From contig CANRPY010000001.1 in the NCBI GenBank assembly GCA_947632595.1, positions 2,457-66,456 of the forward strand: a stretch of 64,000 nt of DNA. The letters are read 5' to 3'. How positions within the stretch are numbered: the first letter of the stretch is position 1; each line of letters opens with the position of its first letter. This DNA comes from an uncultured Bacilli bacterium (GTDB taxonomy: Bacteria; Bacillota_I; Bacilli_A; RF39; UBA660). Of this stretch, positions 1-29,599 are shown one piece after another. Below the pieces are notes generated by a model that saw only the letters and a list, made by a program, of their open reading frames with translations, was not told the origin of the DNA and did not search any database. A program made the position numbers and the translations under genes.

Positions 1-1227
1 AACAGTACTTGCTCTTCTATTCAAAGTTTCATGATTAAGAATATCAGTATATTCTTTCATAAATTTAATTATTTGTTCTTTGCTAGGTATCTTTTTATTT
101 TCTATATAGTATTTATATGAATTATAAAACACTTTATGTTTTAATATGGCCTCTATTAGTTTTTCATTTCTGCTTTTCATATCAAGATTTATAATTGCAA
201 ATCCTAATGGTGTTAAAAGATATTCATTATTTGTTCTATCAATTATTCCAAGATATTTAGCAGCTGCTAAATAATAGTTCCCTTGTCTAACATCAAATTC
301 ATATTCTTCTGCAATAGAATTTGCCGTATTTATTTTTGAATCAATCAAATCAGCAATACCAATTATTCTATTGAAAGAGTCGGCTTGGGGAAAGGGAACT
401 TCTGATTGTGGCAAATCATTTACAGTTTCTGTTCTTTCCATAATCTCTTGTTTTATTTCATCAGAGTTTTTATTATTTATGATGTATCTTTTAATTTCTT
501 TTAATTCCAATGAATTGTAATTATATATATCTGCAAAATTATAAATAAAGAATGTATAAATACCATTATCATATGCAAAGAAAATAGGAATTAATTTTTT
601 TGATAATTTATCAAACCAATGTCTATATGGAAAATATAACTGCCTTATCACAAAATCTTTTGGTAAGTAATTTTTTGCTTCTATTAATATCACCTTTGTT
701 TTTCCTTCATAACCACCATCAATTTCCATTGCTGGCCTATTTACACTAATTCTTGTTTTTCCATTTACACCATTTATTTCAAAACTGAAACCTGTTGCTC
801 TCATTTTTCCTTGAATAGTTTCGGCAACTTCTTCACCAATTGCATCCTCAATCATTCCTGAAAGAAGTGCTACATTCAACGCATTACTTTCTGAATAAAT
901 ATTATCCGGATCTATCGTTTCAATATAAGAAGGAAATTGCATTTTTTTTGGTTCAATATTTTCATATTTTGTTTTTGATATATCTTTAAACAAATCATAT
1001 TTTCCTATAATATATTCTCCATTATCAATTGGAAGTATCCCCAAATTGTTATTTTTAAAAATATTTGGTAACTGACTTGAAAAATCAAATTTTGTCATCA
1101 AACGCGGTTCTTTATAGTATCTAATTTCATCAGCGGTAATCATAAAATATCCATTTTTTTGTATTTCATCTATGATATGATAGTCATTAAATATTTCTTC
1201 CCAAAGTTCAGCAACTGTTTTTTTCAT
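1..1227 (-). CDS. PD-(D/E)XK restriction-endonuclease-like protein with C-terminal helical (wHTH-like) region. The N-terminus is complete; the C-terminus runs off the left window edge.
   Basis: Not in the ORF track because no stop lies in the window. ATG at 1227-1225 is preceded by a GGGGG SD. My own translation stays open to position 1 (409 codons): MKKTVAELWEEIF... It contains EIDGGYEGKTKVILIEAKN (D...ExK nuclease core) and later RQGNYYLAAAKYLGII. It lies 12 nt downstream of the preceding gene on the same strand. Confidence 0.6.
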   Translation of the reverse strand, partial: MKKTVAELWEEIFNDYHIIDEIQKNGYFMITADEIRYYKEPRLMTKFDFSSQLPNIFKNNNLGILPIDNGEYIIGKYDLFKDISKTKYENIEPKKMQFPSYIETIDPDNIYSESNALNVALLSGMIEDAIGEEVAETIQGKMRATGFSFEINGVNGKTRISVNRPAMEIDGGYEGKTKVILIEAKNYLPKDFVIRQLYFPYRHWFDKLSKKLIPIFFAYDNGIYTFFIYNFADIYNYNSLELKEIKRYIINNKNSDEIKQEIMERTETVNDLPQSEVPFPQADSFNRIIGIADLIDSKINTANSIAEEYEFDVRQGNYYLAAAKYLGIIDRTNNEYLLTPLGFAIINLDMKSRNEKLIEAILKHKVFYNSYKYYIENKKIPSKEQIIKFMKEYTDILNHETLNRRASTV

Positions 1228-1239
1228 AGATCCCCCTAC

Positions 1240-2265
1240 CTATTGTTTTTTATTACCTTCAATTTTTGTAAGCATATTTTTTACTAATTTATCTATTTTC
1301 TTTAGTTCAAATTCGATATTATTTATATTTTCATCTTTTAATAATTTATCCGTGTATGAATCTTCTTGGATTCTTTTTCTAAAGTTAGTAATAAATTGAA
1401 AATTGTTATCCATTTTTCCAGAACTAGCCACAATATCATAGCCAGAATAAATATCTTCTTCACCCATAGCTATATCTTTTAATATTTTCCTAGATAACTT
1501 ATCATTTACCTTACTAACATCTCCCAGTTTTCTTATATCGATAGCCATTCTAATATTGTTATTTTTAATATCTGATACAATTTTGTCTTCTAGACCAGGG
1601 ACTTCATCAAATGCTTTTTTTATTCCTCTATTCTTAAGCATTTCTTCATAATAACTCCATTTGCTAGGATGATTATCATCATGTTCAATCATATATTCAT
1701 AAACATCAATCAATTTCTTTATATATGAAGTAGTAATTCCTAATTCAGTTGCTAAGATCTCTATCGGTTTATTACTATCATTAATTGTTCTATATAAATA
1801 ACCCGCTTGTTCATATGGATTCCAGTCTTTACGACCAATAATATGAAATTGCCCTAATAACGTAAACACTGCAGAATCAGGGATATCAGCAGGCAATAGA
1901 GTTACTTTGATCTTTGCCCATCTAATAGGATCTTGTTTATTTAGTAGCCTATAAGCAGCTAATCTACTATTTCCTTCTAAAACAACCATATCGCCATCTC
2001 TTACAAAGATTGGTTCTATTAATCCGCCATTTGATTTAATTGATTCCTTTAATTGCTTTATACGGTCATCTCTGCACATTACTTCTTCAATTTGTTCTTG
2101 GGATGGTTTTTCATCACCAATGTTTAAGACACTATATACTCTAGGGTTTTCTGGAAAGAATTTAAGTTTACTTTGTTCTAACTCACATTTTATAACCTTA
2201 TATTTTTCTTTTCCTATAGTCATCATTTCTTCTACAGTATTTTCCATTCTATTCCTCCTCTTCAA
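1240..2265 (-). CDS. ParB/Srx-fold (ParB N-terminal domain-like) protein, paralog 2
   Basis: GGLIEPIFVRDGDMVVLEGNSRLAAYRLL resembles the ParB-N/Srx (D/E)GxxR box. It is collinear with the 4127-5143 product (HIIGRKDWNPYEQAGYLYR vs HLVGPREWDPYSKAKYLYN). It overlaps the SNF2 gene by 17 nt. Confidence 0.6.
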   Translation of the reverse strand: MKRRNRMENTVEEMMTIGKEKYKVIKCELEQSKLKFFPENPRVYSVLNIGDEKPSQEQIEEVMCRDDRIKQLKESIKSNGGLIEPIFVRDGDMVVLEGNSRLAAYRLLNKQDPIRWAKIKVTLLPADIPDSAVFTLLGQFHIIGRKDWNPYEQAGYLYRTINDSNKPIEILATELGITTSYIKKLIDVYEYMIEHDDNHPSKWSYYEEMLKNRGIKKAFDEVPGLEDKIVSDIKNNNIRMAIDIRKLGDVSKVNDKLSRKILKDIAMGEEDIYSGYDIVASSGKMDNNFQFITNFRKRIQEDSYTDKLLKDENINNIEFELKKIDKLVKNMLTKIEGNKKQ

Positions 2266-3745
2266 GAATTTTCTTTATTAGTTTGTCATATGAATAATCT
2301 GCTTCAACTTCATATTCTTCTTTTGAAATGTCATTTTGAACAAGAGAAGCAGCTTTTTCTTTTGCTTTTAATAATTTATGAATCCATTCATCAATACTTC
2401 CTCTTATCATAATGTTATAGATATTACATTCCTTTGTCTGAGATATACGATGGATTCTATCTTGAGCTTGTAAATAGTCATCTAAACTAAAGCCTCTATC
2501 ATAGAATATAGCATTATTTGCAACAGTCAATGTTAATCCTTCCTTTGCAGATTGTGGAGTGGCAATTAATACCTTTGAATCTCCTTCTTTAAACTTTTTA
2601 ACTGAATCATTTCTTTGTTCAACTGACATGCTACCACTTATTATAACTGCATTGTAATTTTCAAACACCTTTTTAAAATAATTAACATTATAAATATAGT
2701 TGGTCCAAATTATCACTTTTTCATCTCGACCTACTATTTCTTTAACTAGCGATTTAAGTTCTAGTTCTTTTCCTGATTTAAAATTAATAGTATCATCTAA
2801 CATTTTAGGATTTGAAGTTATTTGTTCTAGTCTTAATATTCTTTTCAAAACAGAAGACACATCATCAATTTCTCTTTTATTATTTTGAATTAATTCAATA
2901 TATAATCCTCTTCTTAACTTATCATACATTTTCTTTTGTTCTGGTGAAAACATGGTCCAAACATCATGATATATTTTTTCCGGCAAAGAAAGGTTTGCAC
3001 TTCTTTTAGTTTCTCTAATTGAAAAATCATTTATTCTTTCAAAGATATTAGAAATAAATTCTTCAAATTCTATTCTTTTTTCTGGACTTGAGGCAAGTTT
3101 GTTAGTTAAATCTGATTTAGATTTAAACTCTTTGTAGTCATCGCTCAAACTCTTTCCACAATCTAAAAAATATATTTGTGCCCATATATCGTAAGGTCTA
3201 TTTGCAACAGGAGTTCCAGTCATGATTACTTTTCTTATAAATAAAGGAGACAATTCAAAGAAATCTTGTGTAAGTTTAGACTCTGGATTTTTCAGTTTTG
3301 CAGATTCATCAATTATGATTCCTACATTTCTAGATTTTAAAAATAACTTAAATCTGTTTTTTTCTAAAGATACCGTTTCAAAATTTGTAATTATCAATCT
3401 CGTTGCACTGTTAAAAACATAAAAGTTACTACCTCTATTATTGTTTAATACTTTTGGGTGTAAGAAGGAATGCATTTTTGTTTCTTCTTGCCAATTTTTT
3501 ACAAGTCCTTTTTTAGTTACAATTAAAACTGTATCAATCTCTTTTTCAGATATCCAATACAGAGCAATATCTAAAGCTATTTTTGTTTTTCCTAAACCTT
3601 GCTCATGAAATATTGCAGCGTAGTCAAGATCTTTGGCAAAATCAACAGCTTGTGATTGGTAAATAAAAGATTTCATTTTTGATTCATACTTAGGTTCATT
3701 ATCTAATACTATTTTTTTCATATTCTTTGCAAACCCCCAATTCAT
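2249..3745 (-). CDS. SNF2-family ATPase/helicase (short, about 500 aa)
   Basis: Motif I HEQGLGKTKIA, motif II IIIDESAKLKN, motif III MTGTPVANRPYDIWAQIYFL, motif VI LQAQDRIHRISQ. The annotated start overlaps the upstream gene by 47 nt; internal Met starts at about 3721 or 3676 are possible. Confidence 0.85.
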   Translation of the reverse strand: MNWGFAKNMKKIVLDNEPKYESKMKSFIYQSQAVDFAKDLDYAAIFHEQGLGKTKIALDIALYWISEKEIDTVLIVTKKGLVKNWQEETKMHSFLHPKVLNNNRGSNFYVFNSATRLIITNFETVSLEKNRFKLFLKSRNVGIIIDESAKLKNPESKLTQDFFELSPLFIRKVIMTGTPVANRPYDIWAQIYFLDCGKSLSDDYKEFKSKSDLTNKLASSPEKRIEFEEFISNIFERINDFSIRETKRSANLSLPEKIYHDVWTMFSPEQKKMYDKLRRGLYIELIQNNKREIDDVSSVLKRILRLEQITSNPKMLDDTINFKSGKELELKSLVKEIVGRDEKVIIWTNYIYNVNYFKKVFENYNAVIISGSMSVEQRNDSVKKFKEGDSKVLIATPQSAKEGLTLTVANNAIFYDRGFSLDDYLQAQDRIHRISQTKECNIYNIMIRGSIDEWIHKLLKAKEKAASLVQNDISKEEYEVEADYSYDKLIKKILEEEE

Positions 3746-4127
3746 TTATTATAACTATTTTTACGCTTATATTTTCCGCAAGTTTGTTGCAAAGTCTTAT
3801 TGCAGCTTTTGTTGTTTCCCATGGAACCGCAATTACAAAGATACATTTATAACCCATATTACTTTTTTCTTTTATAAGATTGAAATAAGATTTGTATTGA
3901 AGTAAACTATGTTCTCTTTCAAAATCTTCATCTGTTTTTGCTTCACCTATAATTAAAATTTTGTCATGGCTATAAAATAAATCAGGTATGTATCCTTCTA
4001 GTGTTCTTGTAACATTTCCATTTACTTCAAAAGTATCCGATTCAATTAGCTTATTTTCAATATAACCTAATGTACTAACATATTCATAAATTTTTTTTAC
4101 TAAAGAATGATGTTTATTTGATTCCAT
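3699..4127 (-). CDS. Small (142 aa) PD-(D/E)XK nuclease-fold protein
   Basis: YIPDLFYSHDKILIIGEAKTDEDFE gives PD...(E)AK spacing typical of the restriction-endonuclease fold. ATGA start/stop overlap with the upstream ParB-like gene. Confidence 0.5.
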   Translation of the reverse strand: MESNKHHSLVKKIYEYVSTLGYIENKLIESDTFEVNGNVTRTLEGYIPDLFYSHDKILIIGEAKTDEDFEREHSLLQYKSYFNLIKEKSNMGYKCIFVIAVPWETTKAAIRLCNKLAENISVKIVIINELGVCKEYEKNSIR

Positions 4128-5143
4128 TATTCTTTGTTCATATCTTCAACAAACCAATCAACTGTTGATTTTAAATTTGTTAAAGCTGCTCCCAACTCAT
4201 TATTTCCATCTTTTATATCTTTATAATCTTTTAGTTGCATATTGTAAATTCTATTTGTTAATTCAACACATAGCTGTTCTAAAGAAACTGTCTTTAAATC
4301 TTTATATTCAGGTTTATTAGTAATTGTTTTTTCATATGCTTCTTTTATGTTACTTTTTAATAATATTTTAGTTGCTTCTTCATCTTTTAAAATTTGAGGT
4401 AATTTGCGAACATTGATAGCTGTATCTACGATTCCGTCTATTACCCACTTAGCATAGTTTTCTAAAGTAAACCTAGATAAAACTGCTTCTTTTACTGAGG
4501 CGTTTTGTAATTCAAAAAATTTTGAAAATTCTCTTTGATCAAATTCATCATCAGCTTCTAGCTGTGGTCTATAATACTTTTCCATATCTTGGTATGCATG
4601 AATAAATTTCATAATTTCGCTTGTCTTACCACCGCAAAAATCTATTATTTGATTCATCGGTAAATTTTCAACATAACATAAATTATATAAGTATTTAGCT
4701 TTTGAATAAGGGTCCCATTCTCTTGGCCCAACTAAATGAGATTGCAGCCTAATTGCATGTATTTCTTCCAAAGTTAGTTCTTCATAAACTATGGATGGAA
4801 TGGTATCCCATTCACCATCAACTCCATTTTCTTTAAATTCTTGATATATTTTTAACCTTGTATTTCCTTCTATTACAATATATTTTCCATCTTCTTGATG
4901 ATTAACTAATATTGGATGAATAATTCCTTTATTTGTTCTAATTGAGTTGAATAAACTATTAAAATTAGTTTGACTAGAATCTTCAACTCCACTTCCTAAA
5001 GCTAAAGCTAGAGCTTCGCTGGTTAGACTATCTTTATCATACATCTCAATATACTTTGCAATTCTTGGATTAGACATATCTAATTCAACTTCATTGATTT
5101 TTAAATCCTTGTAAATGCCTTTCATTTTCAATCTCCTTTTCAT
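4127..5143 (-). CDS. ParB/Srx-fold (ParB N-terminal domain-like) protein, paralog 1
   Basis: GIIHPILVNHQEDGKYIVIEGNTRLKIYQEF. ATGA overlap with the methyltransferase gene upstream. Confidence 0.6.
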   Translation of the reverse strand: MKRRLKMKGIYKDLKINEVELDMSNPRIAKYIEMYDKDSLTSEALALALGSGVEDSSQTNFNSLFNSIRTNKGIIHPILVNHQEDGKYIVIEGNTRLKIYQEFKENGVDGEWDTIPSIVYEELTLEEIHAIRLQSHLVGPREWDPYSKAKYLYNLCYVENLPMNQIIDFCGGKTSEIMKFIHAYQDMEKYYRPQLEADDEFDQREFSKFFELQNASVKEAVLSRFTLENYAKWVIDGIVDTAINVRKLPQILKDEEATKILLKSNIKEAYEKTITNKPEYKDLKTVSLEQLCVELTNRIYNMQLKDYKDIKDGNNELGAALTNLKSTVDWFVEDMNKE

Positions 5144-5973
5144 TAATAATTTGTAATTATTACTTCTTCAATTTTTCCTCTTTTTTTACCATTTGCATTT
5201 ATATTTCTTTGAGCTTTTATTACATGAATATTAAATTCATTATAAAGCTCATTAATTAATTTTGTATTATGATTTGATAGCATCACATAACACCCTTTTT
5301 TATCCAATTTTTTAAATACATCAGATAGTCTTTTTTGTTCGTCTTTACCAAAACCATTTTCAGTATAGTCATTAAATGTGGTTGTGTCTGAATCATATGG
5401 TGGATCCAAATATACAAAATCACCTTTTTTTGCTTTTTTTACTGCATCCTCATAATCACATGATAATAATTCAATTTCATTAAAGTTCAAAATACAGTGT
5501 ACTATTCCAAGATTTTGTCCTTCATATGTATTGATTTTACTTTTCTTACCAAAGGGAACATTAAATTCATTTTTACTATTCACTCTATATAACCCATTAA
5601 AACAAGCTTTATTTAAATATATAGTCCTGGCAGCTCTTTTATAGTCGGCAATTTTATTAAAACTTGATTTATCCCTATCTTTATTTCTTAGTTCATAATA
5701 ATATTTTTCTGAGTGATTTGCTTCGTGATGATTTAATTCATTACACATTTTTTCAAATTTCACTTCATCCTTGATGCATTCAAAAACATTCATTAATTCT
5801 TTATTATAGTCATTTAATACTGCTTTTTTAGGTGCTAATTCAAAAAAAACCGCTCCTCCACCGACAAATGGTTCATAATAAACATCGTATTCTTTTGGAA
5901 TATATTTTTTTATTTCTGGCATTACTTGTCTTTTCCCACCTGCCCATTTAACAAACGGCTTTCCCTTCAACAT
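5143..5973 (-). CDS. dam: Dam-family N6-adenine DNA methyltransferase
   Basis: VKWAGGKRQ near the N-terminus, SAM motif EPFVGGGAVFFEL, catalytic motif IV YLDPPY. First gene of the operon. Confidence 0.85.
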   Translation of the reverse strand: MLKGKPFVKWAGGKRQVMPEIKKYIPKEYDVYYEPFVGGGAVFFELAPKKAVLNDYNKELMNVFECIKDEVKFEKMCNELNHHEANHSEKYYYELRNKDRDKSSFNKIADYKRAARTIYLNKACFNGLYRVNSKNEFNVPFGKKSKINTYEGQNLGIVHCILNFNEIELLSCDYEDAVKKAKKGDFVYLDPPYDSDTTTFNDYTENGFGKDEQKRLSDVFKKLDKKGCYVMLSNHNTKLINELYNEFNIHVIKAQRNINANGKKRGKIEEVIITNY

Positions 5974-6281
5974 ATTAACCCTCCTGATAAGATTCTCATT
6001 TACAATTATTATACATTATTTTGCTAAAAAAAGAAATATTAACATATTTCAATAAAAGCACTTTTTCTTGGTTCTCTATTCTACCTATAATAAAACAACC
6101 GCATTTTCCTGAACTCCTTGCGATTCTTTTTTACTTTTCTGATTTACATATTCCTAGTATAATCTATCATCAAAAATATGAAGTATGTTGTATGTAGCGA
6201 ATAAAGACTTTATTTAATTTTTGCATTAAAACAATACCCGTTTCTATGTTTTTATGTTAAAGTATATAATTGTAATTATGT

Positions 6282-7076
6282 ATGGGTGTTTATAAATACT
6301 TAGATGGGGAAATTGATATGACTGGTTCTATGAAAAAACAGGTACAATTGTTTATGACTTTTGATATTTTAGGGGATACTGAGAGAACAGGACCCTTGCT
6401 TTGGCATATTGATCGAAAAAGATTAGAAGATGTTAAAAATCATATTTTAGATTTAATTCTTATTTCTCGTATTGTTAGAAAAGAACTTCCTTCTCGAATT
6501 GATTATGATCGATTAACGGATTATATTATTTGCCATGACCTACCTGAGGCAATTACTGGAGATATTACTAAATTTGAAGGTGTTAGTGATGAGGAGATTA
6601 ATCGTGTAACAGGAATTGCAGTTCAATTCTTACAAAATACTTTTGGTTCTATTATGGATATTCAAAAAAATATTGATGCCTTTGACCATTCTTCTGATTT
6701 AGAAGCTAAGATTGCGAAAATGATTGATAAAATTCATTCTGCTTCTACTTTTATAAAATATCAAAGCGAAGCTAATGTAGATATGGATAATCCTGATATT
6801 ATTCCTATTCTTAGAAATCATCCTGTTGTTGTGGAAAAAATTGCAGAGGGAAAAGATTTAGCAGATATTTTTTATGAATTTCATATGGCTTCTGTTCGCA
6901 TTAGTGATGAAGAGTGTCGTAGATATCATATTACTAGAGAAGAAGCGGATCATATTGTTGCGGTACTTAGAAGTTTTGCAGAAGAGATGTATTCCCAAAA
7001 AAGAGATGGTTCTTTATTTGATGTATATGGAGAGTTTCCAAAAGAAGCAATGAAATATAATAGAAATCGATCTTAA
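6282..7076 (+). CDS. HD-domain hydrolase, YfbR-like 5'-deoxynucleotidase family
   Basis: NHILDL...ICHDLPEAITGDITK matches the H...HDxxExxTGD pattern of YfbR-type HD phosphohydrolases. The true start may be an internal Met. Confidence 0.65.
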   Translation: MGVYKYLDGEIDMTGSMKKQVQLFMTFDILGDTERTGPLLWHIDRKRLEDVKNHILDLILISRIVRKELPSRIDYDRLTDYIICHDLPEAITGDITKFEGVSDEEINRVTGIAVQFLQNTFGSIMDIQKNIDAFDHSSDLEAKIAKMIDKIHSASTFIKYQSEANVDMDNPDIIPILRNHPVVVEKIAEGKDLADIFYEFHMASVRISDEECRRYHITREEADHIVAVLRSFAEEMYSQKRDGSLFDVYGEFPKEAMKYNRNRS

Positions 7077-7518: not shown

Positions 7519-7962
7519 TTATTGTTTTTTCTTTTGTGGTTTTCTCTCAAAATGATTTAGGTAGGCAGCTAATTGATCTAAGTTTTCTGCAACAAATGCT
7601 CCGTTTTTAGCAACTAATTTAGCAGTCTTTAAAGCACATTTTAATGTATGTCCTTCAAACTTTTTACCATTTGCTTCTGTTAATAAACAGAATGCTGTTT
7701 GTTCAGGGCGTTTGTTACTATCATCTGTTACTTCTACAAATGAATAGAATCCTTCTCCTTCTGGAGTGATTACATATAGACAAACATCATCTGTTTCTCT
7801 GTGGTAATCTTCAATTGCCTGACATTCTGGTGTCCAATCTGGTACAACAGGATTAAATGTCTCTACTTTTTCTTCATTTAATTTCTTTTGTAATTCTTCT
7901 CTCCAAGTAGAATCTGCACAGGTACCTCCTAAAAATACTTTTACTTTTTCCATTTTCATCAT
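7519..7962 (-). CDS. Nucleoside 2-deoxyribosyltransferase-like protein (tentative)
   Basis: The N-terminal KVFLGGTCADSTWREEL pattern and the size (about 147 aa) resemble the Nuc_deoxyri_tr2-type Rossmann-like family. Recalled similarity only. Confidence 0.4.
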   Translation of the reverse strand: MMKMEKVKVFLGGTCADSTWREELQKKLNEEKVETFNPVVPDWTPECQAIEDYHRETDDVCLYVITPEGEGFYSFVEVTDDSNKRPEQTAFCLLTEANGKKFEGHTLKCALKTAKLVAKNGAFVAENLDQLAAYLNHFERKPQKKKQ

Positions 7963-9778: not shown

Positions 9779-10537
9779 TTATTCGTTTGTTTGATTTCTT
9801 TCTTTATTTAATTTATGCCAGTTGATTAGTCCAATAACTGCCATAATTAAGTAGATTGCTTTTTTGGTTAAATATACAGGGTCAAAGTATACAATATACA
9901 TTATTACCGCAATGACATCTGTGATAATCCACCAAAAGTATTGTTCTTTGTAGCGAAACATTTCTAAGATTACAGCAATGATTCCAATACTTACTGTAAA
10001 AGCATCTAACCAAGCAACATTTCCTCCTAACTTTACAAGTATGATATGGTAGATCATTCCTCCTATTAGTACTAGTGCACCTGTTAATATATTTTGTTTG
10101 ATGGTTAATTTTTTAGATTTTGTTTTTTCACAATATTTCTCATCACGGTGTTTTGCCCATATATACCATGAGATAAAGTTTACTGGCATATAGAAAAGTA
10201 CTTCTAGGGCAAAGGTTCCATAGATTTTATGGTAAAACAAGAAGATTGCATATACAAAGGTATTTATTACTGCGAAAACAAAGTTTGAAATATTTGCTTT
10301 GGCACAAAAGAAGATACACATAATCCCGCAGATGGCACTTATAAAGTTAATGATAGTTAACCATAATGGGTTGGTACTTTCTTCTGGATGAATGATTGCT
10401 GTAAAAACTGATAAGGATGCAATGACTACCATAACAATAATCATAACGATTTCATACCATTTTAACTCCTTAAAACTCTTTATCATATTTTTTATTTTTT
10501 CTTTTTTCGGTATTGGTTTTCTTTTTATACGATCCAT
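9779..10537 (-). CDS. pnuC: Nicotinamide riboside transporter PnuC
   Basis: Polytopic membrane protein with the PnuC-like NFISWYIWAKH motif. Overlaps the upstream NMNAT-like gene by 13 nt. Confidence 0.75.
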   Translation of the reverse strand: MDRIKRKPIPKKEKIKNMIKSFKELKWYEIVMIIVMVVIASLSVFTAIIHPEESTNPLWLTIINFISAICGIMCIFFCAKANISNFVFAVINTFVYAIFLFYHKIYGTFALEVLFYMPVNFISWYIWAKHRDEKYCEKTKSKKLTIKQNILTGALVLIGGMIYHIILVKLGGNVAWLDAFTVSIGIIAVILEMFRYKEQYFWWIITDVIAVIMYIVYFDPVYLTKKAIYLIMAVIGLINWHKLNKERNQTNE

Positions 10538-11019
10538 TTTTTTCTCTCCTTTTCTTGATTCATTTCTCGAATCATGGTTCCACTAATGGGAACATTTTTT
10601 CTTTTCTCATCTACAATTCTATGAATTGCTTCTGGATATGCTCTTTTAAAATATTCTTCATAAGATGGCTCACTACTATAGACAGCATCTAGTCTTTTTC
10701 CTACTACTTCTCGTACAAGTGGTGTTTCGGCATCCCAGTCTTCTTCTCCACTTTCTAAGCGACAAGTACTTACATCGATAAATACCGGTAAAACATTTTC
10801 ATATTTATTAGATAGATTGATAAGATGTTTTTCTCTTGCTTTTACCGATAAGTAATCCTCTTTGTTGTTTTGTAGAATTTCTTCTTCATCCCTCCCACCA
10901 AAGAATAGAATGGCATAGACCAGTTCACATTCTTCTGATGCTTTCTCAATACAATAATTGTGGCCTTTATGAAGAGGCATAAATTTTCCACCATACATTC
11001 CTATCTTAAATTTTGTCAT
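10525..11019 (-). CDS. Nicotinamide-nucleotide adenylyltransferase (NadR-type NMNAT domain only)
   Basis: GGKFMPLHKGHNYCI is the (H/T)xGH nucleotidyltransferase motif. Operonic with pnuC. Confidence 0.7.
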   Translation of the reverse strand: MTKFKIGMYGGKFMPLHKGHNYCIEKASEECELVYAILFFGGRDEEEILQNNKEDYLSVKAREKHLINLSNKYENVLPVFIDVSTCRLESGEEDWDAETPLVREVVGKRLDAVYSSEPSYEEYFKRAYPEAIHRIVDEKRKNVPISGTMIREMNQEKERKKWIV

Positions 11020-11094
11020 AATTCCTCCATCTTAATAACATTTTGTTAATATCAAAGATGATAAATAATGCAGATTGGCCTATCTGTTATTATC

Positions 11095-11123
11095 ATTATA
11101 TTAATAACATAAACTTTTGTCAA
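11095..11123 (-). promoter_or_regulatory. Sigma-A-type promoter of the NMNAT-pnuC operon
   Basis: Minus strand: TTGACA (11123-11118), 17-nt spacer, TATAAT (11100-11095). Confidence 0.6.
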
Positions 11124-11169
11124 TATGTTTTTAACAAAAAAATAATATCAATTGATTTTGATATTATTT

Positions 11170-13254
11170 TTAAAAACTTCCTTCTTGATCTAATTCTTTT
11201 AAATCAAAGTAAAAGCCAAATTCTTTATAGGTTTCTTCTCCTATTTTTGCTTGTCTTGTTTCTTTAATGATTCCTCCTAATTTCTTATAGAATAAAATGG
11301 CATTTTTATTTTCTGCTAAAGTCCACACTATCATATTTTTCTTATTTCTTGATAGTAATTCTTTGGCTGTTTCTAGGAAAAGTGCTTTTCCGATTCCTTT
11401 CTTTTGTTCTTTTTCTTTGATGTATAGACTTACTAATTCTGAATCATATTTAAATGCTGTTTCTTTTTCATCAAAGCAGGAATATCCTAATATTTCTCTT
11501 CCTTTTACTGCTACTAATACTCGGTCTTTATATTCTTCAAAGCTTCTAAAGTACTTTTTGGTTTGCGTATCGATATTTAATTTTTCTAAATAAGCATCTG
11601 CAATTAATCCTTTATAGGTTGATTTCCAGTCTTCTACTTTGATTTTGGCCATTTGCGCTTGATCTTCTATTTTATTCATACGAATAATGTATTCTTCTTT
11701 TTCTGATAATTCTTTCATTGCGTGATTCATTAAAGAGAATGCTCGTATTAGTTCTTCATCTTCTAGGGCAAAGGATACTCTGCCAATTAGTTCTTCTTCG
11801 TATGGCCAGGAGATGGATTGTCCTATTAAGAAACGTACTCTTCCTGTTTTATAGAAAAACTTTAATAAGTCTCTTTCCGTACTGATGAGTCTTCCTCGAT
11901 ATTTTCTTCCCTTCATTGGCGTAAAATCAATGAGTGCGAAGAAGCCAGAATCTGGTTCTAAGTTTTCTGGGAAATGAGCATATGGTAGCCCTTTTAAGAC
12001 TTCTTTGGCATAAGGCCCTAACTCGCTTTCTACTTTTTGTTTGATTTCTTCTTGGTACTCTTTTTCTACTTTTGGAAGTCCTTCTACTAAGGCTTTTAAT
12101 AATTGATACTTTTTCTGATAAGTTTTTCTTAACTCTTTAAAGTATTCTTGGTACTCTTTTTTTCTTTGTTCGGTTGTATTAAAGGCTCCCGCTAGGGCAT
12201 AACCGGTAATGGATGGAGAGGAATCAATTTCTTGGAAGATTCTGTTTACTACTTCTCGAATAATAATTTCATCGGCAACGACAAAGCCTGCGCGAAGGGA
12301 TGCTAAACCATAGGCTTTGGATAGACCAAATAAGGAGATGGTATTTTGAAACATTCCTTTGATGGTTGCGATTGGTTTTGCTAAATTTTCTTCTTGATAC
12401 GTGGTATCTCGATAGACCAAATCATCGATTACAAAGACTCCTCTTTCTAGACATATCTTTCCTATTTCTGTTAAAAGGTCTATTTCTTTTTCTCCCATTA
12501 CTTTACCTGTTGGGTTATTGGGATTTGCATTTACAAAGGCTACTACTCTTGGTACGTATCCTTTTCTTCTATGATAGATTTTTTGAAGACTATCATTAAT
12601 TTCATCAATTTTATCTGCTAATTTTTTAGGGTTTACTAAAAAGTGATCTTCTTTTTCTAGTGGCAAGATATCGACTTCTGCTCCTGCTCGTTCTGCGCGA
12701 ATGGTAAATAATCCATAGTTTGGTCCTGTTACTAAAACAACGTCCCCTGGTCTTGAAATAATATTGATTATAATGTTAAAGATCATGGAAGTGGATGGCA
12801 TAAATGTAATATTGTTTACGGATAGGCCTTTTTCATCGATATCTGAATAAGAATATGGCTCATCATTTTGAAAACCTAATTCTTCCACATAGTCTAATAA
12901 GACTTTTCGAATTCTATCATCTCCTTCTGTATAGGGATACGAATATAGATCTTCTTGTTCTAAGCATTCTTTCATTTTTTCTATACACATAGGAAAAGGT
13001 TTATATTTTAGGGGATTTCCTGTTCCTAAATCGATATCTTTTTCGACTGTTATTTTCTCATCTCTTACTTCATATCCGTAAAAGTTAATTGCATCTGCAA
13101 TCTTTTCTACAGTTGGATTAAATCTTTCATAGTCTAGACGGTTTCCTACTAAAGGAAGACCATATCTTCTTTCTTCTAAATTGGGATTTTCTCTTAAAAA
13201 ACGATCAATTGCATGTGATTTAATAAGCATTTTAACACCTTCTATTTTTCTCAT
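11170..13254 (-). CDS. Class I/II PLP-dependent aminotransferase fused to a C-terminal GNAT acetyltransferase
   Basis: Aminotransferase body with the PLP-lysine context FGLSKAYGLASLRAGF. The C-terminal roughly 150 aa carry GNAT motif A, QKKGIGKALF. Confidence 0.75.
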   Translation of the reverse strand: MRKIEGVKMLIKSHAIDRFLRENPNLEERRYGLPLVGNRLDYERFNPTVEKIADAINFYGYEVRDEKITVEKDIDLGTGNPLKYKPFPMCIEKMKECLEQEDLYSYPYTEGDDRIRKVLLDYVEELGFQNDEPYSYSDIDEKGLSVNNITFMPSTSMIFNIIINIISRPGDVVLVTGPNYGLFTIRAERAGAEVDILPLEKEDHFLVNPKKLADKIDEINDSLQKIYHRRKGYVPRVVAFVNANPNNPTGKVMGEKEIDLLTEIGKICLERGVFVIDDLVYRDTTYQEENLAKPIATIKGMFQNTISLFGLSKAYGLASLRAGFVVADEIIIREVVNRIFQEIDSSPSITGYALAGAFNTTEQRKKEYQEYFKELRKTYQKKYQLLKALVEGLPKVEKEYQEEIKQKVESELGPYAKEVLKGLPYAHFPENLEPDSGFFALIDFTPMKGRKYRGRLISTERDLLKFFYKTGRVRFLIGQSISWPYEEELIGRVSFALEDEELIRAFSLMNHAMKELSEKEEYIIRMNKIEDQAQMAKIKVEDWKSTYKGLIADAYLEKLNIDTQTKKYFRSFEEYKDRVLVAVKGREILGYSCFDEKETAFKYDSELVSLYIKEKEQKKGIGKALFLETAKELLSRNKKNMIVWTLAENKNAILFYKKLGGIIKETRQAKIGEETYKEFGFYFDLKELDQEGSF

Positions 13255-26063: not shown

Positions 26064-27722
26064 TCATTTTATTTTACCATACCTTCCGTAAGGATTTCTT
26101 ACTAAATTCTTATCAGTGTATTTAAAGGTATAGTCATCAAGAATTTGATATTTGAACTTAATTGTTATATTTCGATTTTCATCTGCTTCTATTCTATCTA
26201 TTATGGTAAATAACAAGTCTCTATTTGGTTTTTCTAAATTTAATAATTCTTTTATCTTCTTTGTATAATTTGGTATCTTATTAGCATTATTTTTCCTTTT
26301 CATAATTTCTAATTCTACTTCTTCTAGTTTATCTTTAAGTTTTTTCATTTTTTGCTCATAAGGAGATACTATCATTTTATAAGAGTCTAAAGAAATGTTA
26401 CCATCAATTCGATCTTGATAAACTGTTTGAATATTAGAAGATAATTTTAAAATGTCTTTTTCAATATCTTTTTTTATTTCATCTAGTGATTTAGTACCAG
26501 AATTGGTTCTATTTATAATTTCGTTATTTAATTCTTTAATACTTAATCCTTTAAATAAATCGGATAATAATTTATTTAATTCTTCTAATACTTCTTCTTC
26601 AAAATATTCATAAGGGAAAAAATGCGTTTTGCATCTTCCTCTAATGGGATCTCTAGCATATCTATTACAATTAATAGTCCAGTAGTTATGATTCTTTCTA
26701 TAAATTACTCCTAACCGATTCCCACATTCTTTACAGAAGATTAATCCCTCTAGCAATCTTGTTGGTCTTTTTGTTTTTTTTTCAACTTTTCGATTATGAT
26801 TATCTCTTTTTTTATTAATAATCCTAAATGTCTCTTTATCTACTAATGGTTCATGAGTATTTTCTACTATTACCCATAAACTTTGGTCAAGAGTTATTTT
26901 CTTTTTAGATTTATAACTAATATTGGTCTGAGTATGTTGTACCATATCACCAGTATACATTCTGTTACTCAATATTTTTTTTACTGAATGTATTGTCCAC
27001 TCATTTTTTTCTTTTACTCTAGAAGATATTGGTAAATTCTTATAAGCACTTGGTGTTGGTGCACCTAATTTAGTAAGTCGAGTAGCTATTTCTGATATTC
27101 CTATATCATTTGCTCTCCATTCAAACATTTGCTTAACATAGTGAGCTGTATTAGGATCTATTATTAAATGCCCTTTATCTTCTGGGTCTCTCATATAACC
27201 ATAACACGGTTTGCTCCCAATAAATTTACCATCTTTTCTTTTAGAATCTAATACATTCCTTATTTTTAATGAATTTTGTTTACTATAATAATCATTACAA
27301 GCAATAATAAATGTTGACGAATCATTACTTGCTTGATTTTTCATACTATCATAGTTTTCAACAATAGATATAAATCTTACTTTGTTTTCTGGAAAATATG
27401 TTTCAATATAGTAACCCGTCATTACATGATCTCTACCTAGCCTTGATAAATCTTTTACTACTACAAGATTAATCTTTTTATTTTTTATATCTTCCATCAT
27501 TCTTATAAATCCAGGTCTATCAAAATTTGTTCCTGAATAGCCATCATCTACATACTCATCTATTAAATTAAATCCATTTTTTAAACAATAGTCTCTTAAT
27601 ATTTCTTTTTGATTAGTAACACTTTCGCTATCTGACTCATATTTTTTATCTTTATCTTCTTGAGAAAGTCTAATATAAATACCAGCATTATAATTCATAT
27701 TTGTTAAGTAACTATAATTCAT
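26064..27722 (-). CDS. Large serine recombinase (resolvase N-terminal + recombinase + zinc-ribbon domains)
   Basis: GIYIRLSQEDKD (catalytic Ser), VVVKDLSRLGRD, recombinase-domain body, CKECGNRL...CNRY zinc ribbon, C-terminal coiled coil. Confidence 0.9.
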   Translation of the reverse strand: MNYSYLTNMNYNAGIYIRLSQEDKDKKYESDSESVTNQKEILRDYCLKNGFNLIDEYVDDGYSGTNFDRPGFIRMMEDIKNKKINLVVVKDLSRLGRDHVMTGYYIETYFPENKVRFISIVENYDSMKNQASNDSSTFIIACNDYYSKQNSLKIRNVLDSKRKDGKFIGSKPCYGYMRDPEDKGHLIIDPNTAHYVKQMFEWRANDIGISEIATRLTKLGAPTPSAYKNLPISSRVKEKNEWTIHSVKKILSNRMYTGDMVQHTQTNISYKSKKKITLDQSLWVIVENTHEPLVDKETFRIINKKRDNHNRKVEKKTKRPTRLLEGLIFCKECGNRLGVIYRKNHNYWTINCNRYARDPIRGRCKTHFFPYEYFEEEVLEELNKLLSDLFKGLSIKELNNEIINRTNSGTKSLDEIKKDIEKDILKLSSNIQTVYQDRIDGNISLDSYKMIVSPYEQKMKKLKDKLEEVELEIMKRKNNANKIPNYTKKIKELLNLEKPNRDLLFTIIDRIEADENRNITIKFKYQILDDYTFKYTDKNLVRNPYGRYGKIK

Positions 27723-27795
27723 TTTCTACCTCCTCATTCTATAGCACTTAACTTTCTTCGAGACAAGTGCATCTTACCATGATAAATAAAAATAA

Positions 27796-27831
27796 GCAAA
27801 TCACTAGAACTGTTTTTCTTCTAGAATTTGC
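27796..27831 (-). terminator. Intrinsic terminator downstream of the SSB-like gene
   Basis: Minus strand: GCAAATTCTAGAAG-loop-TTCTAGTGATTTGC followed by TTATTTTTATTT. Confidence 0.55.
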
Positions 27832-27915
27832 TTTAATAAATAATTTAATATTAATTCTTTAAAAATTTCTTTTTTATCTTCTTCCATACTTAAATCTATG
27901 TCCACAATAAAAGGT

Positions 27916-28365
27916 TTATTCACTAGAATCACCATCCTTAAATTGACCAAGTAATTCTTCTAGTTCAGCAAGTTCTTCTTCAGTTGGTGGAATAGATTCG
28001 CATCTTTTACCATTCCAAGTTTCAACTCCATCATAATCAATTCCAATAATAGGACCATTTGCACTAATGAAATCATATTCTTCTATCTTTGTAACAGTAA
28101 CATAATTATGTATCTTTTTATTTTTATCTTGATATGAATTTAAATATCCTTTCAAATAAACATTTTTACCCAATAAAAAAAGACCTTTATTATTCTCATA
28201 AAGATCCTTATAAACTTTTAAACTAGCATATACTAAATTATCTTTTTCTTTTGGTGAATACTTTTTACAAGTAAGTCCCAAAATAATGTATTTATTGTTA
28301 ATTAAAATATTGTTTATATTTCCTGATAATAACACCTCATTATATGTCATAAACAAAACCTCCAT
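27916..28365 (-). CDS. OB-fold single-stranded DNA-binding-like protein
   Basis: NEVLLSGNI...LKVYKDLYENN...GKNVYLKGYLNSYQDKNKK follows the SSB OB-fold pattern. The C-terminus is acidic but lacks the canonical DDDxPF tip. Confidence 0.4.
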   Translation of the reverse strand: MEVLFMTYNEVLLSGNINNILINNKYIILGLTCKKYSPKEKDNLVYASLKVYKDLYENNKGLFLLGKNVYLKGYLNSYQDKNKKIHNYVTVTKIEEYDFISANGPIIGIDYDGVETWNGKRCESIPPTEEELAELEELLGQFKDGDSSE

Positions 28366-28461
28366 TGAATTATATATATAATTTTTTATTTATTATTTTT
28401 CTTTTAATTAATATATTATACATGCACAATAATTCATTTATTTTATGCATATCGTTGCATA

Positions 28462-28797
28462 CTAACTTGAATCATCTTGCACATCTATATCTTGATTTAT
28501 ATATATCCTTCGTTGAATTAAATCGTTATTTCTAACTCTTTTTATATCAATATATCCTCTTTCTTTTAATCTATTTAAAGAGTAATTAATTGTTCTTACT
28601 TTAACAAAAGATAAATTTGATAATACTTTATTAGTTGCAAAACAATAACCATTTAATCTACTAAGATTATAAATATTGCCAAATAAAAAGCAGTCTGATT
28701 TAGTCAAACTGCTATCTTTCATTAGTTCTCTAGGAATAAGTATAAAATCTTTTTTCAAATACAATTTTCTCCTTTCTAAATGTCCCAAAAATATCAT
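28462..28797 (-). CDS. Winged-helix DNA-binding protein (replication-organiser/regulator-like)
   Basis: ATNKVLSNLSFVKVRTINYSLNRLKERGYIDIKR is a wHTH pattern. The gene has a palindrome-rich upstream region. Confidence 0.5.
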   Translation of the reverse strand: MIFLGHLERRKLYLKKDFILIPRELMKDSSLTKSDCFLFGNIYNLSRLNGYCFATNKVLSNLSFVKVRTINYSLNRLKERGYIDIKRVRNNDLIQRRIYINQDIDVQDDSS

Positions 28798-28831
28798 TTT
28801 TTAATTGATATTTTTGTATCAGGATAAGACG

Positions 28832-28909
28832 ATGGTACCACAACATATATTTCACCTATGTAAAATCTATGTTTCTAATGGTACCAAACCTATTTTGCAC
28901 TTGCAAAAT
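28832..28909. promoter_or_regulatory. Cluster of palindromic operator-like sites upstream of the wHTH gene
   Basis: ATGGTACCA occurs at 28832-28840 and 28878-28886 (TGGTACCA is a palindrome). A perfect inverted repeat ATTTTGCA-ct-TGCAAAAT lies at 28892-28909. Confidence 0.4.
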
Positions 28910-29203
28910 TTATCCCAAATAAGTGATTGAATCTTAATTAATCCTTTATATATAAGCAAAATAAAAATCCCAATATTTATAATATTGAGATTTCAATGGG
29001 ATATAAAGCATTCTTTTTATATACCTCATTATATATAATTTTCACCTATTATAGAAACTTTAACATAAAAAATTGTAATTGTCCATTCGATTTAAAAGTG
29101 ATTTTAAATGTTATTTATACTTCGCAAAACATATATTTTATCCTTTATTTTCAAGGATTTTTTTAAATTAAATTTATGTATATTTTAAAAAAATAATTAA
29201 AAA

Positions 29204-29599
29204 TTATTTATATTTTAAGTTTTTAATATCTATATTCCATAATCCTAATTTACCATTTATCTCTTTATCATAATCAATCTTTTTCACATTTTTTAATTTC
29301 CAAGCATAACCACTTCTATATTTTGCACCATATGCTATATTATTTTCATTCATTATTTTACTATTTAATTTTTCATTAAATTCTAGGCAATCTTCTATTT
29401 CGGCTTCAGCAATAATTCTTTTTGATGGATAATCTAAATTTAAAAATTTAAATTTTTCCATTTCTTTTTTATCGACACCGGCTCCAGCATGGATTAATAC
29501 TTTACCTCTATAATTAGTTTTCCAAGACCTAAATTCATATTTTTTTATTCCTTCTGCAACTAGGGTAGCCCATGGTTGTTTTAATGTTAATATTTTCAT
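29204..29599 (-). CDS. ASCH-domain protein
   Basis: MKILTLKQPWATLVAEGIKKYEFRSW...GKVLIHAG is a typical ASCH (PUA-like) N-terminus. Confidence 0.7.
   Translation of the reverse strand: MKILTLKQPWATLVAEGIKKYEFRSWKTNYRGKVLIHAGAGVDKKEMEKFKFLNLDYPSKRIIAEAEIEDCLEFNEKLNSKIMNENNIAYGAKYRSGYAWKLKNVKKIDYDKEINGKLGLWNIDIKNLKYK

Follow-up and report, generated by a model that had tools for sequence, protein, structure and literature searches.

The six genes (g1 to g6) that fill positions 1-5973 of the window, the whole 64-kb stretch (64,000 nucleotides) analyzed here from an uncultured Bacilli bacterium, comprise an ordinary type II restriction-modification (R-M) pair, g1 and g6, with a four-gene cassette lodged between its two members. 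This inner set is a unit in its own right, far more widespread and found mostly without Dam and this restriction endonuclease (REase). We would describe the block as a composite of the R-M pair and a self-contained, co-transcribed cassette of restriction type. Judging from sequence comparison, the cassette probably represents a novel type of immunity tied to DNA modification, because it is undescribed, multi-phylum and nearly always beside an enzyme of DNA-modifying type. A preliminary description of this DNA had proposed one new six-gene architecture with Dam marking self for two nucleases. This is not supported, since g1 and g6 are a separate pair and the cassette is independent of them; the broader claim of a methylation-linked defence locus is supported, a defence function being suggested by the defence-island context.

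Operon layout and the outer restriction-modification pair

The six co-directional minus-strand genes (Table 1) are real and packed as one operon, with spacers or overlaps of 1-47 nt, much as the preliminary description had it. Its 47-nt overlap (g3/g4, counted on the longest ORF) and its 12-nt gap ahead of g6 were correct. However, the ATGA overlaps it placed at 5143 and 4127 are both TAATG junctions with a 1-nt overlap, and its 17-nt g4/g5 overlap hinges on a TTG at 2265, the called start being the ATG at 2247, preceded by GAGGAGG and leaving a 1-nt spacer to g4. For g2, translation probably begins at the ATG at 5125, which is preceded by a AAAGGAGA ribosome-binding site, leaves a 17-nt spacer and agrees with homologue N-termini and gene calls. 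As had been seen, the last gene leaves the window; the C-terminal 12 aa of g6 were recovered from the identical contigs L002/L003. No sense-strand terminator-like hairpin was found within the block, and one lies exactly at the g6 end (in L002). The leader promoter is a candidate read from the sequence; a promoter scan is uninformative in such AT-rich DNA, with 44 sites against 42.7 expected. The AT-richness noticed by eye is there (27.5% GC against 31.4% in the next 20 kb), but it is modest and not unique (26.3% elsewhere in the window).

Table 1. Features of the operon and its leader
Feature	Positions	Strand	Assignment	Remarks
g1	5143..5973	-	Dam/DpnM-type N6-adenine DNA methyltransferase, 276 aa	PF02086, TIGR00571, MTase_II
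g2 (ParB1)	4127..5125	-	ParB/Noc/KorB-like, 332 aa	ParB_N, fold; longest ORF from 5143
g3	3699..4127	-	Minimal stand-alone PD-(D/E)XK nuclease, 142 aa	Conserved residues, fold; 3' end overlaps g4
g4	2249..3745	-	Minimal SNF2-family ATPase/translocase, 498 aa	Alternative start 3721; no accessory domains
g5 (ParB2)	1240..2247	-	Second ParB-like, 335 aa	Longest ORF from TTG 2265
g6	1..1227	-	Type II restriction endonuclease, DUF6996-DUF6997-DUF7226 family	409/421 aa in window
Operon leader	5974..6052	-		Possible extended -10 TGTATAAT 6015-6008; TTGAAA 6052-6047
Shine-Dalgarno AGGAGG	5985-5980	-		Ahead of g1 ATG at 5973; read from sequence

The Dam motifs reported in g1 were confirmed by PF02086 (1.3e-65) and TIGR00571 (1.2e-86), with PADLOC MTase_II matching at 4e-98; the best solved homologue is M.DpnII (PDB 2dpm, 6.4e-82), followed by E. 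coli Dam. The enzyme is probably GATC-specific, and no other 4-bp palindrome is as strongly depleted in the window as GATC (O/E 0.58). The other outer gene, g6, had been labelled PD-(D/E)XK/wHTH. Its EID...EAK motif is indeed present, with E168, D170, E183 and K185 invariant, but the assignment can be made more specific, to a type II REase family catalogued in PADLOC (REase_II PDLC03513, 3.5e-90, 403/426 profile positions covered). Its domains are DUF6997 (1.2e-58), DUF7226 (3.7e-31) and DUF6996 (7.5e-29), and a sequence search for a relative of solved structure gave none. We regard the two as a conventional R-M pair; their homologues stand alone, without the cassette, as adjacent and overlapping genes in locus L092 (73%/71% identity) and on plasmids. 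In this pair g1 is the M gene, and it is also the candidate 'writer' for the cassette.

The four-gene cassette

Nested between g1 and g6 is the order ParB-like, 142-aa nuclease, SNF2, ParB-like. The first protein, g2, has an N-terminal domain of the ParB/Srx NTP-binding type (ParB_N, 1.1e-5), an HTH and a helical C-terminal region. Its AF2 model (pLDDT 84) matches CDP/CTP-bound ParB, Noc and KorB over ~250 columns with E to 3.9e-7, and the motifs LDxxNPRI, EGNTR and IRLQ.H.VGPR.WD are invariant, those resembling ParB boxes I-III (NPR, GxxR, LQ) being conserved. Relatives of g2 number 2311 at 90% clustering and occur in 171 GTDB species genomes. Its paralogue g5 is about 28-30% identical, with reciprocal tblastn cross-matches in every locus, and matches TIGR00180 parB_part (1.4e-7) and ParB_N (0.021). 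The EGN[ST]R box pointed out before in both proteins is kept in 80/80 and 79/80 orthologues, in g5 together with NPR (best 80 of 171 loci). From motifs and modelled fold we infer that g2 and g5 bind NTP.

The small nuclease g3 had no match in Pfam, NCBIfam or PADLOC. Its PD...EAK motif, already recognized, is strictly kept, D49, E62 and K64 being 100% conserved in 75 sequences, in which E2, H6, D31, P48-D49, G61-E62-A63-K64 and Q77 reach ~93-100%. The top Foldseek matches of its AF2 model (pLDDT 88.8) include XisH, the R2 restriction-like endonuclease, bunyaviral cap-snatching endonucleases, the R.BspD6I small subunit and YaeQ, with weak scores (best E 8.6e-3); we take all of these to be PD-(D/E)XK folds. 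At 50% identity the family forms 537 clusters among 1.84e9 representatives. As to g4, the SNF2 motifs described earlier are borne out by SNF2-rel_dom (PF00176, 1e-25) and Helicase_C (2.7e-18), and its orthologues (best 80 of 171 loci) keep GxGKT in 73/78, DExx in 76/78 and QxxxRxxR in 75/78.

The 80 loci that we compared are the best-scoring 80 of 171 and are not phylogenetically independent. Among them, SNF2 and ParB2 are colinear and on the same strand downstream of ParB1 in 70 of the 72 with enough sequence, and the cassette appears across many bacterial phyla. The six-gene order was seen only among the close relatives of the window, in L001-L003, where the proteins are identical, and in L089 at 76-83% identity. 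Some loci are on plasmids or next to integrases and recombinases, with 7 matches only in 72,556 plasmids and no match in 50,697 phage records. The gene after ParB2 codes for a wHTH protein in 17 loci (best 80 of 171) and is fused to an S24 LexA/CI-type peptidase in 4 of the 7 longer forms scanned, which suggests a dedicated regulator for the cassette. In 17 other loci a small protein encoded after ParB2 shares homology with the DUF7226 domain of g6 (hhalign 92.9%, E 3.8e-7).

Partners of the cassette

In 61 of the 80 loci (best 80 of 171) the neighbour is a previously unannotated radical-SAM protein, often joined by a DGQHR/DndB-like protein (TIGR03187 1.7e-34, DpdB 1.2e-19) and a GHKL ATPase. 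CxxxCx[FWY]C is found in 60/60 members of the partner cluster, the family profile gives weak matches to MiaB/RimO radical-SAM cores, and one member is labelled 'radical SAM protein' at NCBI. Another 10 loci, in two separate cassette clades (Bacilli L007-L014 and Saccharibacteria L018/L025), have a Dam neighbour without any radical-SAM gene; so has the window, where no radical-SAM, GHKL or DGQHR gene was found in the 64 kb. The two partners are near-exclusive alternatives in 71/80 loci (best 80 of 171), and the remaining 9 are 6 truncated contigs, 2 disrupted cassettes and 1 cassette between two transposases. One locus (L064) has a radical-SAM gene and a nearby Dam. The two Saccharibacteria loci show no recognisable REase near cassette and Dam, and one of unrecognised type could hide among their no-match proteins.

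In Bacilli the cassette and GATC R-M genes remain together although components have been exchanged at least three times. Sister lineages have the order DpnM-DpnA-cassette-DpnII or Dam-REase-cassette. Specifically, L008-L012 carry DpnM-like, DpnA-like (PF01555, 1.6e-64) and DpnII (PF04556, 5e-108) genes around the same cassette, and g1 is 76-79% identical to the Dam genes beside DpnA and DpnII in L008/L009. The flanking REase belongs to the DUF6997 family or to the unrelated DpnII, downstream or upstream of the cassette, and Dam comes in three subtypes (79%, 45% and 39% identity). A complete REase is kept in every Bacilli locus, so Dam may be there only for the REase and the cassette may be an operon passenger.

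The reading that we favour, at about even odds, is that the cassette is a restriction module dependent on a 'writer' that uses SAM to mark DNA, and that in this lineage the dependence has shifted to GATC methylation. We counted for it the cassette unit, the partner alternation, the persistence in Bacilli, the operon coupling, the defence island, the Dnd/Dpd parallel (see below) and the GATC depletion in host DNA. Counted against it were the REase in every Bacilli locus, L064 with both partners, a possible hidden REase in Saccharibacteria, the selection of best-scoring and not phylogenetically independent loci, the weak fold scores of g3, and a radical-SAM DNA substrate that is only putative, as the substrate could instead be protein or RNA, or the product a small molecule.

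A possible but rather doubtful alternative is that a single transcript carries two systems working independently, the GATC R-M pair and a cassette reading no modification. The cassette might sense topology, ends or specific sites of plasmid or phage DNA, like Wadjet or a Type IV-like system, the spot between M and R being merely tolerated and expressed. The self-sufficient M-R pair elsewhere, the REase retained in Bacilli, the regulator-like wHTH and S24 forms, and L043, where the cassette is alone between two Mutator transposases, would all fit this. However, the radical-SAM/Dam alternation is hard to obtain by chance adjacency, and both the persistence through component swaps and the Saccharibacteria loci with Dam but no recognisable REase speak against it.

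The one obligate six-component machine of the preliminary description, with Dam marking self, DNA recognition by both ParB-like proteins, SNF2 as the translocase and g3 and g6 as the executing nucleases, seems improbable. The single tightly packed operon, the six-gene order kept in the different genomic context of L089 and the DUF7226 homology favour it. On the other hand, the g1 and g6 orthologues are adjacent without the cassette in L092 and plasmids, sister loci swap g6 for the unrelated DpnII or put the REase upstream, at least 61 cassette loci (best 80 of 171) have neither g1 nor g6, and in contig L001 g6 is broken into two ORFs with the rest intact.

Known systems and the proposed role of the cassette

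Comparison with PADLOC-2023, Pfam, NCBIfam and the searchable literature gave no described system that matches. As the preliminary description held, no named system fits; PADLOC gave domain-level matches only, ZorD/DpdE for the SNF2 core and PD-Lambda-5_A/PDC-M38A for ~80-170 aa of the ParB-like proteins. DpnII-type R-M (DpnM/DpnA/R.DpnII, GATC) shares a close DpnM homologue in g1, but the REase of the window is from the unrelated DUF6996/6997/7226 family, and in both layouts four extra genes lie between methylase gene(s) and REase gene, an arrangement that, to our knowledge, described DpnII cassettes do not show. The layout also resembles Dnd (DndABCDE-FGH) and Dpd (DpdABC plus DpdD-K), with a modification module beside a restriction module. 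The shared logic is a DGQHR ParB/Srx-fold protein in the former, here among the frequent neighbours with writer and ATPase, and an SF2/SNF2-type helicase plus nuclease; g4 matches DpdE models across the SNF2 motor (4e-31). In contrast, DndA/C/D/E, DpdA (TGT) and DpdC are absent here, the role of writer would fall to a radical-SAM enzyme or, in the window, to Dam, and the two canonical ParB+HTH-type proteins and the 142-aa nuclease have no counterparts in DndFGH or DpdD-K.

HsdR, Res (type I/III R-M) and ZorD also combine an SF2/SNF2 ATPase with a PD-(D/E)XK nuclease, and ZorD is the best PADLOC match of g4 (6e-46, motor only), but here the nuclease is a separate small polypeptide and there is no HsdM/HsdS, Mod or ZorABC. 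Class 1 DISARM has an SNF2-family helicase and an N6-adenine methylase too; however, DrmA, DrmB (DUF1998) and DrmC (PLD) are missing here, the block has a small Dam instead of DrmMI, and the match of DrmD models to g4 is weak (4e-13; 25 bits in NCBIfam, where the cut-off is 610 bits). PD-lambda-5 is an experimentally validated defence pair, in which one protein has a ParB-like N-terminus and the other is a D12-class methylase; it has been termed a compacted RM+Abi system (Vassallo et al. 2022, PMC9519451). Its A component is matched by g2 and g5 and its B component by g1, weakly (E 1e-4 to 1e-3) and over ~80 N-terminal residues only, and with two genes it lacks SNF2 and a separate nuclease.

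ParB, Noc and KorB are partition or silencing clamps. The predicted g2 fold shares with these CTP-dependent proteins the N-terminal NTP-binding domain and HTH, but a ParA or KorA partner is absent and each locus has two divergent paralogues, always with nuclease and SNF2 motor. A non-immune DNA-maintenance or regulatory module of mobile islands, with KorB/Noc-like clamps and a remodeller serving to silence, partition or stabilise the element, or else acting on the flanking R-M (control or restriction alleviation), is unlikely: the closest folds of g2 and the loci on plasmids or near integrases and recombinases suit it, but no ParA adjoins the cassette, one of its obligate members is a nuclease whose active site is fully conserved, phage and plasmid matches are nil and 7, and the chromosomal settings are defence islands. 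The block itself sits in a defence island, with AbiLi/AbiLii and a PDC-M66-like pair downstream; the conjugative leading region that had been considered is not the setting.

If the writer-dependent reading is right, g2 and g5 would be an NTP-gated DNA-binding or clamp sensor, g4 a translocase and g3 its separate PD-(D/E)XK nuclease subunit, a predicted complex that would make g3 and g4 a split analogue of the HsdR or ZorD motor-nuclease. Self would be spared through a SAM-dependent DNA 'writer' that the cassette would need and whose gene lies beside it; in most bacteria this would be the radical-SAM enzyme, often with the DGQHR/DndB-like protein and the GHKL ATPase. In the lineage of the window this writer may have been replaced by Dam; the cassette would therefore take GATC methylation as 'self', and unmethylated incoming DNA would be attacked by it alongside the type II enzyme.

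Organization of the six-gene block and its setting

The region between window positions 1 and 5973 was read as six co-directional ORFs, all on the minus strand, that the preliminary description took for one single defence system. Our analysis indicates instead a nested composite, in which a type II restriction-modification (R-M) pair, formed by the first and last genes (g1 and g6), surrounds a cassette of four genes (g2 to g5). Pairs of this type are found by themselves in plasmids and in a metagenomic locus, and the order ParB1, small nuclease, SNF2 and ParB2 is kept, together with the strand, in 70 of the 72 cassette loci with enough sequence.

Features of the window discussed in the text
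Feature	Positions	Strand	Assignment or remark
g1	5973-5143	-	Dam-family methylase
g2	5125 (or 5143)-4127	-	ParB-like, ParB1
g3	4127-3699	-	small nuclease
g4	3745-2249	-	SNF2 motor
g5	2247 (or 2265)-1240	-	ParB-like, ParB2
g6	from 1227 past window edge	-	type II restriction endonuclease (REase)
HD_3 phosphohydrolase	6282-7076		nucleotide metabolism, directly upstream of the operon
Nucleoside 2-deoxyribosyltransferase-like	7519-7962		nucleotide metabolism, directly upstream of the operon
Second low-GC island	26064-35199		23-29% GC
Large serine recombinase	26064-27722		second low-GC island
Unannotated ORF, 331 aa	29690-30685		possible REase, convergent to the C5 methylase
C5 cytosine methylase	30677-31810		end overlaps the convergent ORF
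S8 subtilase and AAA ATPase pair	31843-35199		second low-GC island
1523-aa protein	51649-56220		FHA and FtsK/SpoIIIE ATPase domains

The genes are tightly packed, although some junctions differ from those first described. The supposed ATGA overlaps at g1/g2 and g2/g3 are actually TAATG, and the likely start of g2 is the ATG at 5125, preceded by AAAGGAGA. The 47 nt overlap of g3 and g4 was found again (23 nt if the alternative start is taken), as was the 12 nt gap between g5 and g6, whereas g4 and g5 are 1 nt apart if the called ATG at 2247 is taken. The missing 3' end of g6 could be recovered from three contigs that encode identical proteins (L001 to L003), giving 421 aa in full. No terminator-like hairpin was detected on the sense strand within the block (1-5973), and one is located exactly at the end of g6, as seen in L002. 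The promoter scan does not discriminate in the AT-rich DNA of the window. As for the AT-richness noted by eye, the block is indeed slightly lower in GC than its immediate flank (27.5% vs. 31.4%), but GC falls lower still elsewhere in the window. In L001, g6 was called as two ORFs (9908-11172) of 104 aa (DUF6996) and 326 aa (DUF6997 and DUF7226) over an otherwise identical contig, and the split reflects either a frameshift in the assembly or a REase naturally knocked out while the cassette and Dam remain intact.

The assignment of g1 is clear (PF02086, 1.3e-65; TIGR00571, 1.2e-86, 291 bits over a cut-off of 115), with the FxGxG and DPPY motifs legible in its translation, and its closest solved relative is M.DpnII/DpnM (2dpm, 6.4e-82, full length), followed by the Dam of E. 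coli. The product of g6 contains the domains DUF6996, DUF6997 and DUF7226, matches the PADLOC profile REase_II PDLC03513 over almost its full length (3.5e-90) and has E168, D170, E183 and K185 invariant across 17 diverse homologues. In Macrococcoides, Megamonas and Stanieria plasmids a g6 homologue directly adjoins a Dam gene with no gene between, and in the metagenomic locus L092 the Dam and REase genes share one base, with 73% identity of the Dam to g1 and 71% of the REase to g6. Since the homologues adjoin there without the cassette, and a methyltransferase with its motifs recurs, in unrelated genomes, next to a separate REase with an intact catalytic motif, we consider g1 and g6 a conventional type II R-M pair. 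Beside the pair of L092 (1248-7947) we found a 1061-aa PLD and SNF2 helicase protein and a 1167-aa Eco57I/N6_Mtase/TaqI_C protein, another helicase-nuclease and methylase set in the same island. GATC is the most depleted of the 16 palindromes of 4 bp in the window (130 observed vs. 225 expected, O/E 0.58), which, as indirect evidence, agrees with a long history of restriction at GATC in the lineage. The depletion of CATG is nearly equal (O/E 0.61 vs. 0.58, maximal-order Markov over the whole 64 kb) and hints at a second restriction pressure, specific for CATG.

On the downstream side of g6, beyond window coordinate 1, L002 (7644-12658) carries a HipA_2 and DUF3037 pair (PADLOC PDC-M66A/B, 1.6e-13 and 2e-08), AbiLi/AbiLii (AAA_21 and RloB; 3.5e-95 and 1.5e-22) and a gene for a SocA_Panacea antitoxin-domain protein, followed by one for a low-molecular-weight phosphatase. 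Upstream of the operon there are HD_3, MutY, NUDIX and PnuC genes, the last three being housekeeping. With housekeeping genes at one flank and AbiL and PDC-M66-like genes at the other, the conjugative leading region with anti-restriction behaviour that had been named as a refuting case can be rejected, and the block lies in a chromosomal defence island. Elsewhere in the window there is a second low-GC island, and the domain combination of the 1523-aa protein recalls an EssC-like type VII secretion ATPase.

The cassette proteins, their family and its neighbours

In Pfam, PADLOC and NCBIfam searches g4 is a SNF2 motor without additional domains. The products of g2 and g5 are mutually paralogous ParB-like proteins, with the ParB-box-like motifs NPR, EGN[TS]R and LQ invariant in both, and EGNTR invariant among the relatives of g2. 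An AF2 model of g2 (pLDDT 84) aligns in its N-domain and HTH to CDP/CTP-bound ParB, Noc and KorB (Foldseek E-values from 3.9e-7 to 1e-4), so that g2 is predicted to have the ParB N-domain and HTH fold with the GxxR nucleotide-binding box. No family in Pfam, NCBIfam or PADLOC matched g3. Its signature E...D...PD...GEAK...Q is 93-100% conserved (n=75 sequences), and the top Foldseek matches of its model (pLDDT 88.8), all with weak E-values, include XisH, the R2 restriction-like endonuclease, cap-snatching endonucleases, the R.BspD6I small subunit and YaeQ, all of which we take to be PD-(D/E)XK folds.

We scanned an alignment of g2 relatives against one genome per GTDB species and found relatives encoded in 171 genomes; the best 80 of the 171 loci, from many phyla, were fetched. 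Their layouts were established by tblastn with the six window proteins, and their partners by clustering of flanking ORFs and HMM searches. The genes g2 to g5 of the window stand in the family order on one strand, and homologues of g1 and g6 appeared by tblastn only in the closest relatives (Bacilli) and a few others of the fetched loci. The most frequent partner, found in 61 of these best 80 loci and frequently only a few bases away, is a protein of 373-692 aa without matches to single-sequence searches in Pfam, NCBIfam, PADLOC or PDB. We read it as a radical-SAM protein, and the whole basis for this is the motif CxxxCx[FWY]C, carried by 60/60 members of the cluster, a weak match (E ~0.04) of the family profile to the radical-SAM cores of MiaB, RimO and 9ccb, and the NCBI annotation of a Rhizobium member as 'radical SAM protein'. 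Within the same best 80 of 171, a GHKL/HSP90-like ATPase accompanies the radical-SAM protein in 33 loci and a DGQHR/DndB/DpdB-like protein in nine. The idea that the long radical-SAM proteins end in a copy of the small wHTH protein was considered and dropped (marginal hhalign match of 84% over 40 columns in one subgroup, nothing in the others).

Besides, ten of the best 80 loci, from two cassette clades, have Dam adjacent and the radical-SAM gene absent: L007-L014, Bacilli MAGs of the window's clade, and L018 and L025, Saccharibacteria of a separate clade in which no REase was recognisable. The remaining nine are six truncated contigs, two disrupted cassettes and one cassette between two Mutator transposases. 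This last one (L043 8458-15474, a Parasphingorhabdus MAG), with the four genes, no writer and a Mutator-family transposase gene at each flank, looks like a composite transposon carrying the cassette alone. No radical-SAM, GHKL or DGQHR genes occur in the 64-kb window, and an adjacent CxxxCxxC radical-SAM gene is also absent from L001, L002 and the related Bacilli locus L089. In the window, L089 and L007-L014 the cassette is flanked upstream by Dam. An origin of the cassette from phages or plasmids was rejected, with no match among 50,697 phage records and seven among 72,556 plasmids, mostly rhizobial megaplasmids. Several Dehalococcoidia cassettes (L039, L045, L053, L060, L065 and L066) are adjoined by a recurrent separate pair, a GHKL-type ATPase of 620-645 aa and a ~330-aa protein of the PP_RS20740 family (NF047698, 1e-10), which may be another uncharacterised defence pair.

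Within the Bacilli clade the arrangement varies. The window and L089 have Dam, cassette and DUF6997 REase; L007, L013 and L014 have Dam, DUF6997 REase and cassette; and L008-L012 have a DpnM-like Dam, a DpnA-like methylase (PF01555), the cassette and DpnII (PF04556, 5e-108). L089 keeps the window's gene order at 76-83% identity in another genomic context, by an integrase and a Mrr-like gene; L091, considered as its cassette-less counterpart, turned out to be the same locus on a truncated contig. The Dam genes fall in three classes of identity to g1 (~79%, ~45% and ~39%). From these layouts and Dam classes, the cassette has kept the company of GATC-type R-M genes through several swaps. Two different REases accompany the same cassette, and in Saccharibacteria there seems to be no REase at all.

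Comparison with known systems

Searches of all six proteins in Pfam, PADLOC and NCBIfam gave domain-level matches only, bearing out the earlier view that no named system is present, and DISARM, Dpd, Dnd/Ssp, Zorya, BREX and PD-lambda-5 were all rejected as assignments. Among the six proteins these searches detected neither the DrmA, DrmB (DUF1998) and DrmC (PLD) set of class 1 DISARM nor the sulfur-insertion genes of Dnd/Ssp (DndACDE or SspABCD). The DpdA transglycosylase, DpdB and DpdC set of Dpd was likewise not found, the window having neither a DGQHR nor a TGT gene, and the resemblance to DpdE is limited to the SNF2 core of g4 (NCBIfam, 16.9 bits vs. a cut-off of 500). ZorABC are absent among the six proteins, and g4 resembles ZorD in the motor region only (59 bits vs. 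the NCBIfam cut-off of 1500). PD-lambda-5 is a two-gene unit with a ~460-aa A protein next to a D12 methylase, whereas the matches of g2 and g5 are confined to ~80 positions at the N-terminus of profiles with 440-502 positions (E from 9e-5 to 5e-3). No description of the cassette, either alone or together with the radical-SAM module, was found in PADLOC-DB 2.0 (2023), Pfam, NCBIfam or searches of the open-access full-text literature, nor in the comparative papers on Dnd and BREX that were examined. The components are all from known superfamilies, and the logic of writer plus motor-nuclease is shared with R-M, Dnd and Dpd.

Possible function of the cassette

We see about an even chance that g2 to g5 are a restriction-type module dependent on an adjacent SAM-using writer, Dam here and in most cases a radical-SAM enzyme. 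The ParB-like proteins g2 and g5 would act as a sensor or clamp pair, working with a split SNF2 motor-nuclease (g4 and g3), and the writer would mark self DNA. In most bacteria this role would fall to the radical-SAM enzyme, in an arrangement of modules that recalls Dnd or Dpd, and in the window's lineage to Dam, which would also serve a classical GATC REase. The main argument is that Dam and radical-SAM partners alternate near-exclusively. Against this reading stands above all the complete REase retained in every Bacilli locus, which would itself explain the Dam gene; this speaks for two autonomous systems in one transcript, an R-M pair and an independent cassette, a possibility that the alternation of partners makes rather unlikely.

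The obligate six-part machine of the preliminary description finds an argument in a wHTH protein of ~225 aa encoded after ParB2 in 17 loci (best 80 of 171), with homology to the DUF7226 of g6 in its C-terminal half (hhalign 92.9%, E 3.8e-7, 152 columns). The recurrence of this type of domain at this position falls short of proof that g6 acts with the cassette. We read the protein as a putative regulator or DNA-binding accessory; of the seven longer forms scanned, four also contain an S24 LexA/CI-type peptidase. With g1 and g6-type pairs standing without the cassette in L092 and plasmids, we consider the six-part machine improbable. A ParABS partition system does not fit the recurrent neighbours of the cassette, which are radical-SAM, GHKL, DGQHR and Dam genes, with no ParA next to it in the window or the best 80 of the 171 loci, and to a non-immune maintenance or regulatory module we would likewise give little credence.

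Returning to the writer-dependent module, a broader proposal can be put forward only tentatively, as possible: the cassette would serve for restriction in an undescribed family of immune systems, spread across phyla and linked to modification, with a heteromeric ParB-type NTP-gated clamp as sensor and the self-mark mostly set by a new radical-SAM DNA-modifying enzyme with DGQHR and GHKL proteins, the window being a natural writer swap to Dam. To our knowledge, ParB-type nucleotide-gated clamps serve in silencing and in the partition of chromosomes and plasmids, and have no known part in immunity. The case also carries a lesson for curation, as what looks like a six-gene system can turn out to be two units, one nested in the other. 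Should the cassette prove to be a restriction module that depends on a writer, it would be a widespread new system with such a clamp as sensor. The radical-SAM partner family may install a so far undescribed DNA modification. The Dam-linked version would be the easiest to study, as the G6mATC mark is easily added, removed and read, and a true swap of the writer to Dam would make the family testable through ordinary GATC methylation.
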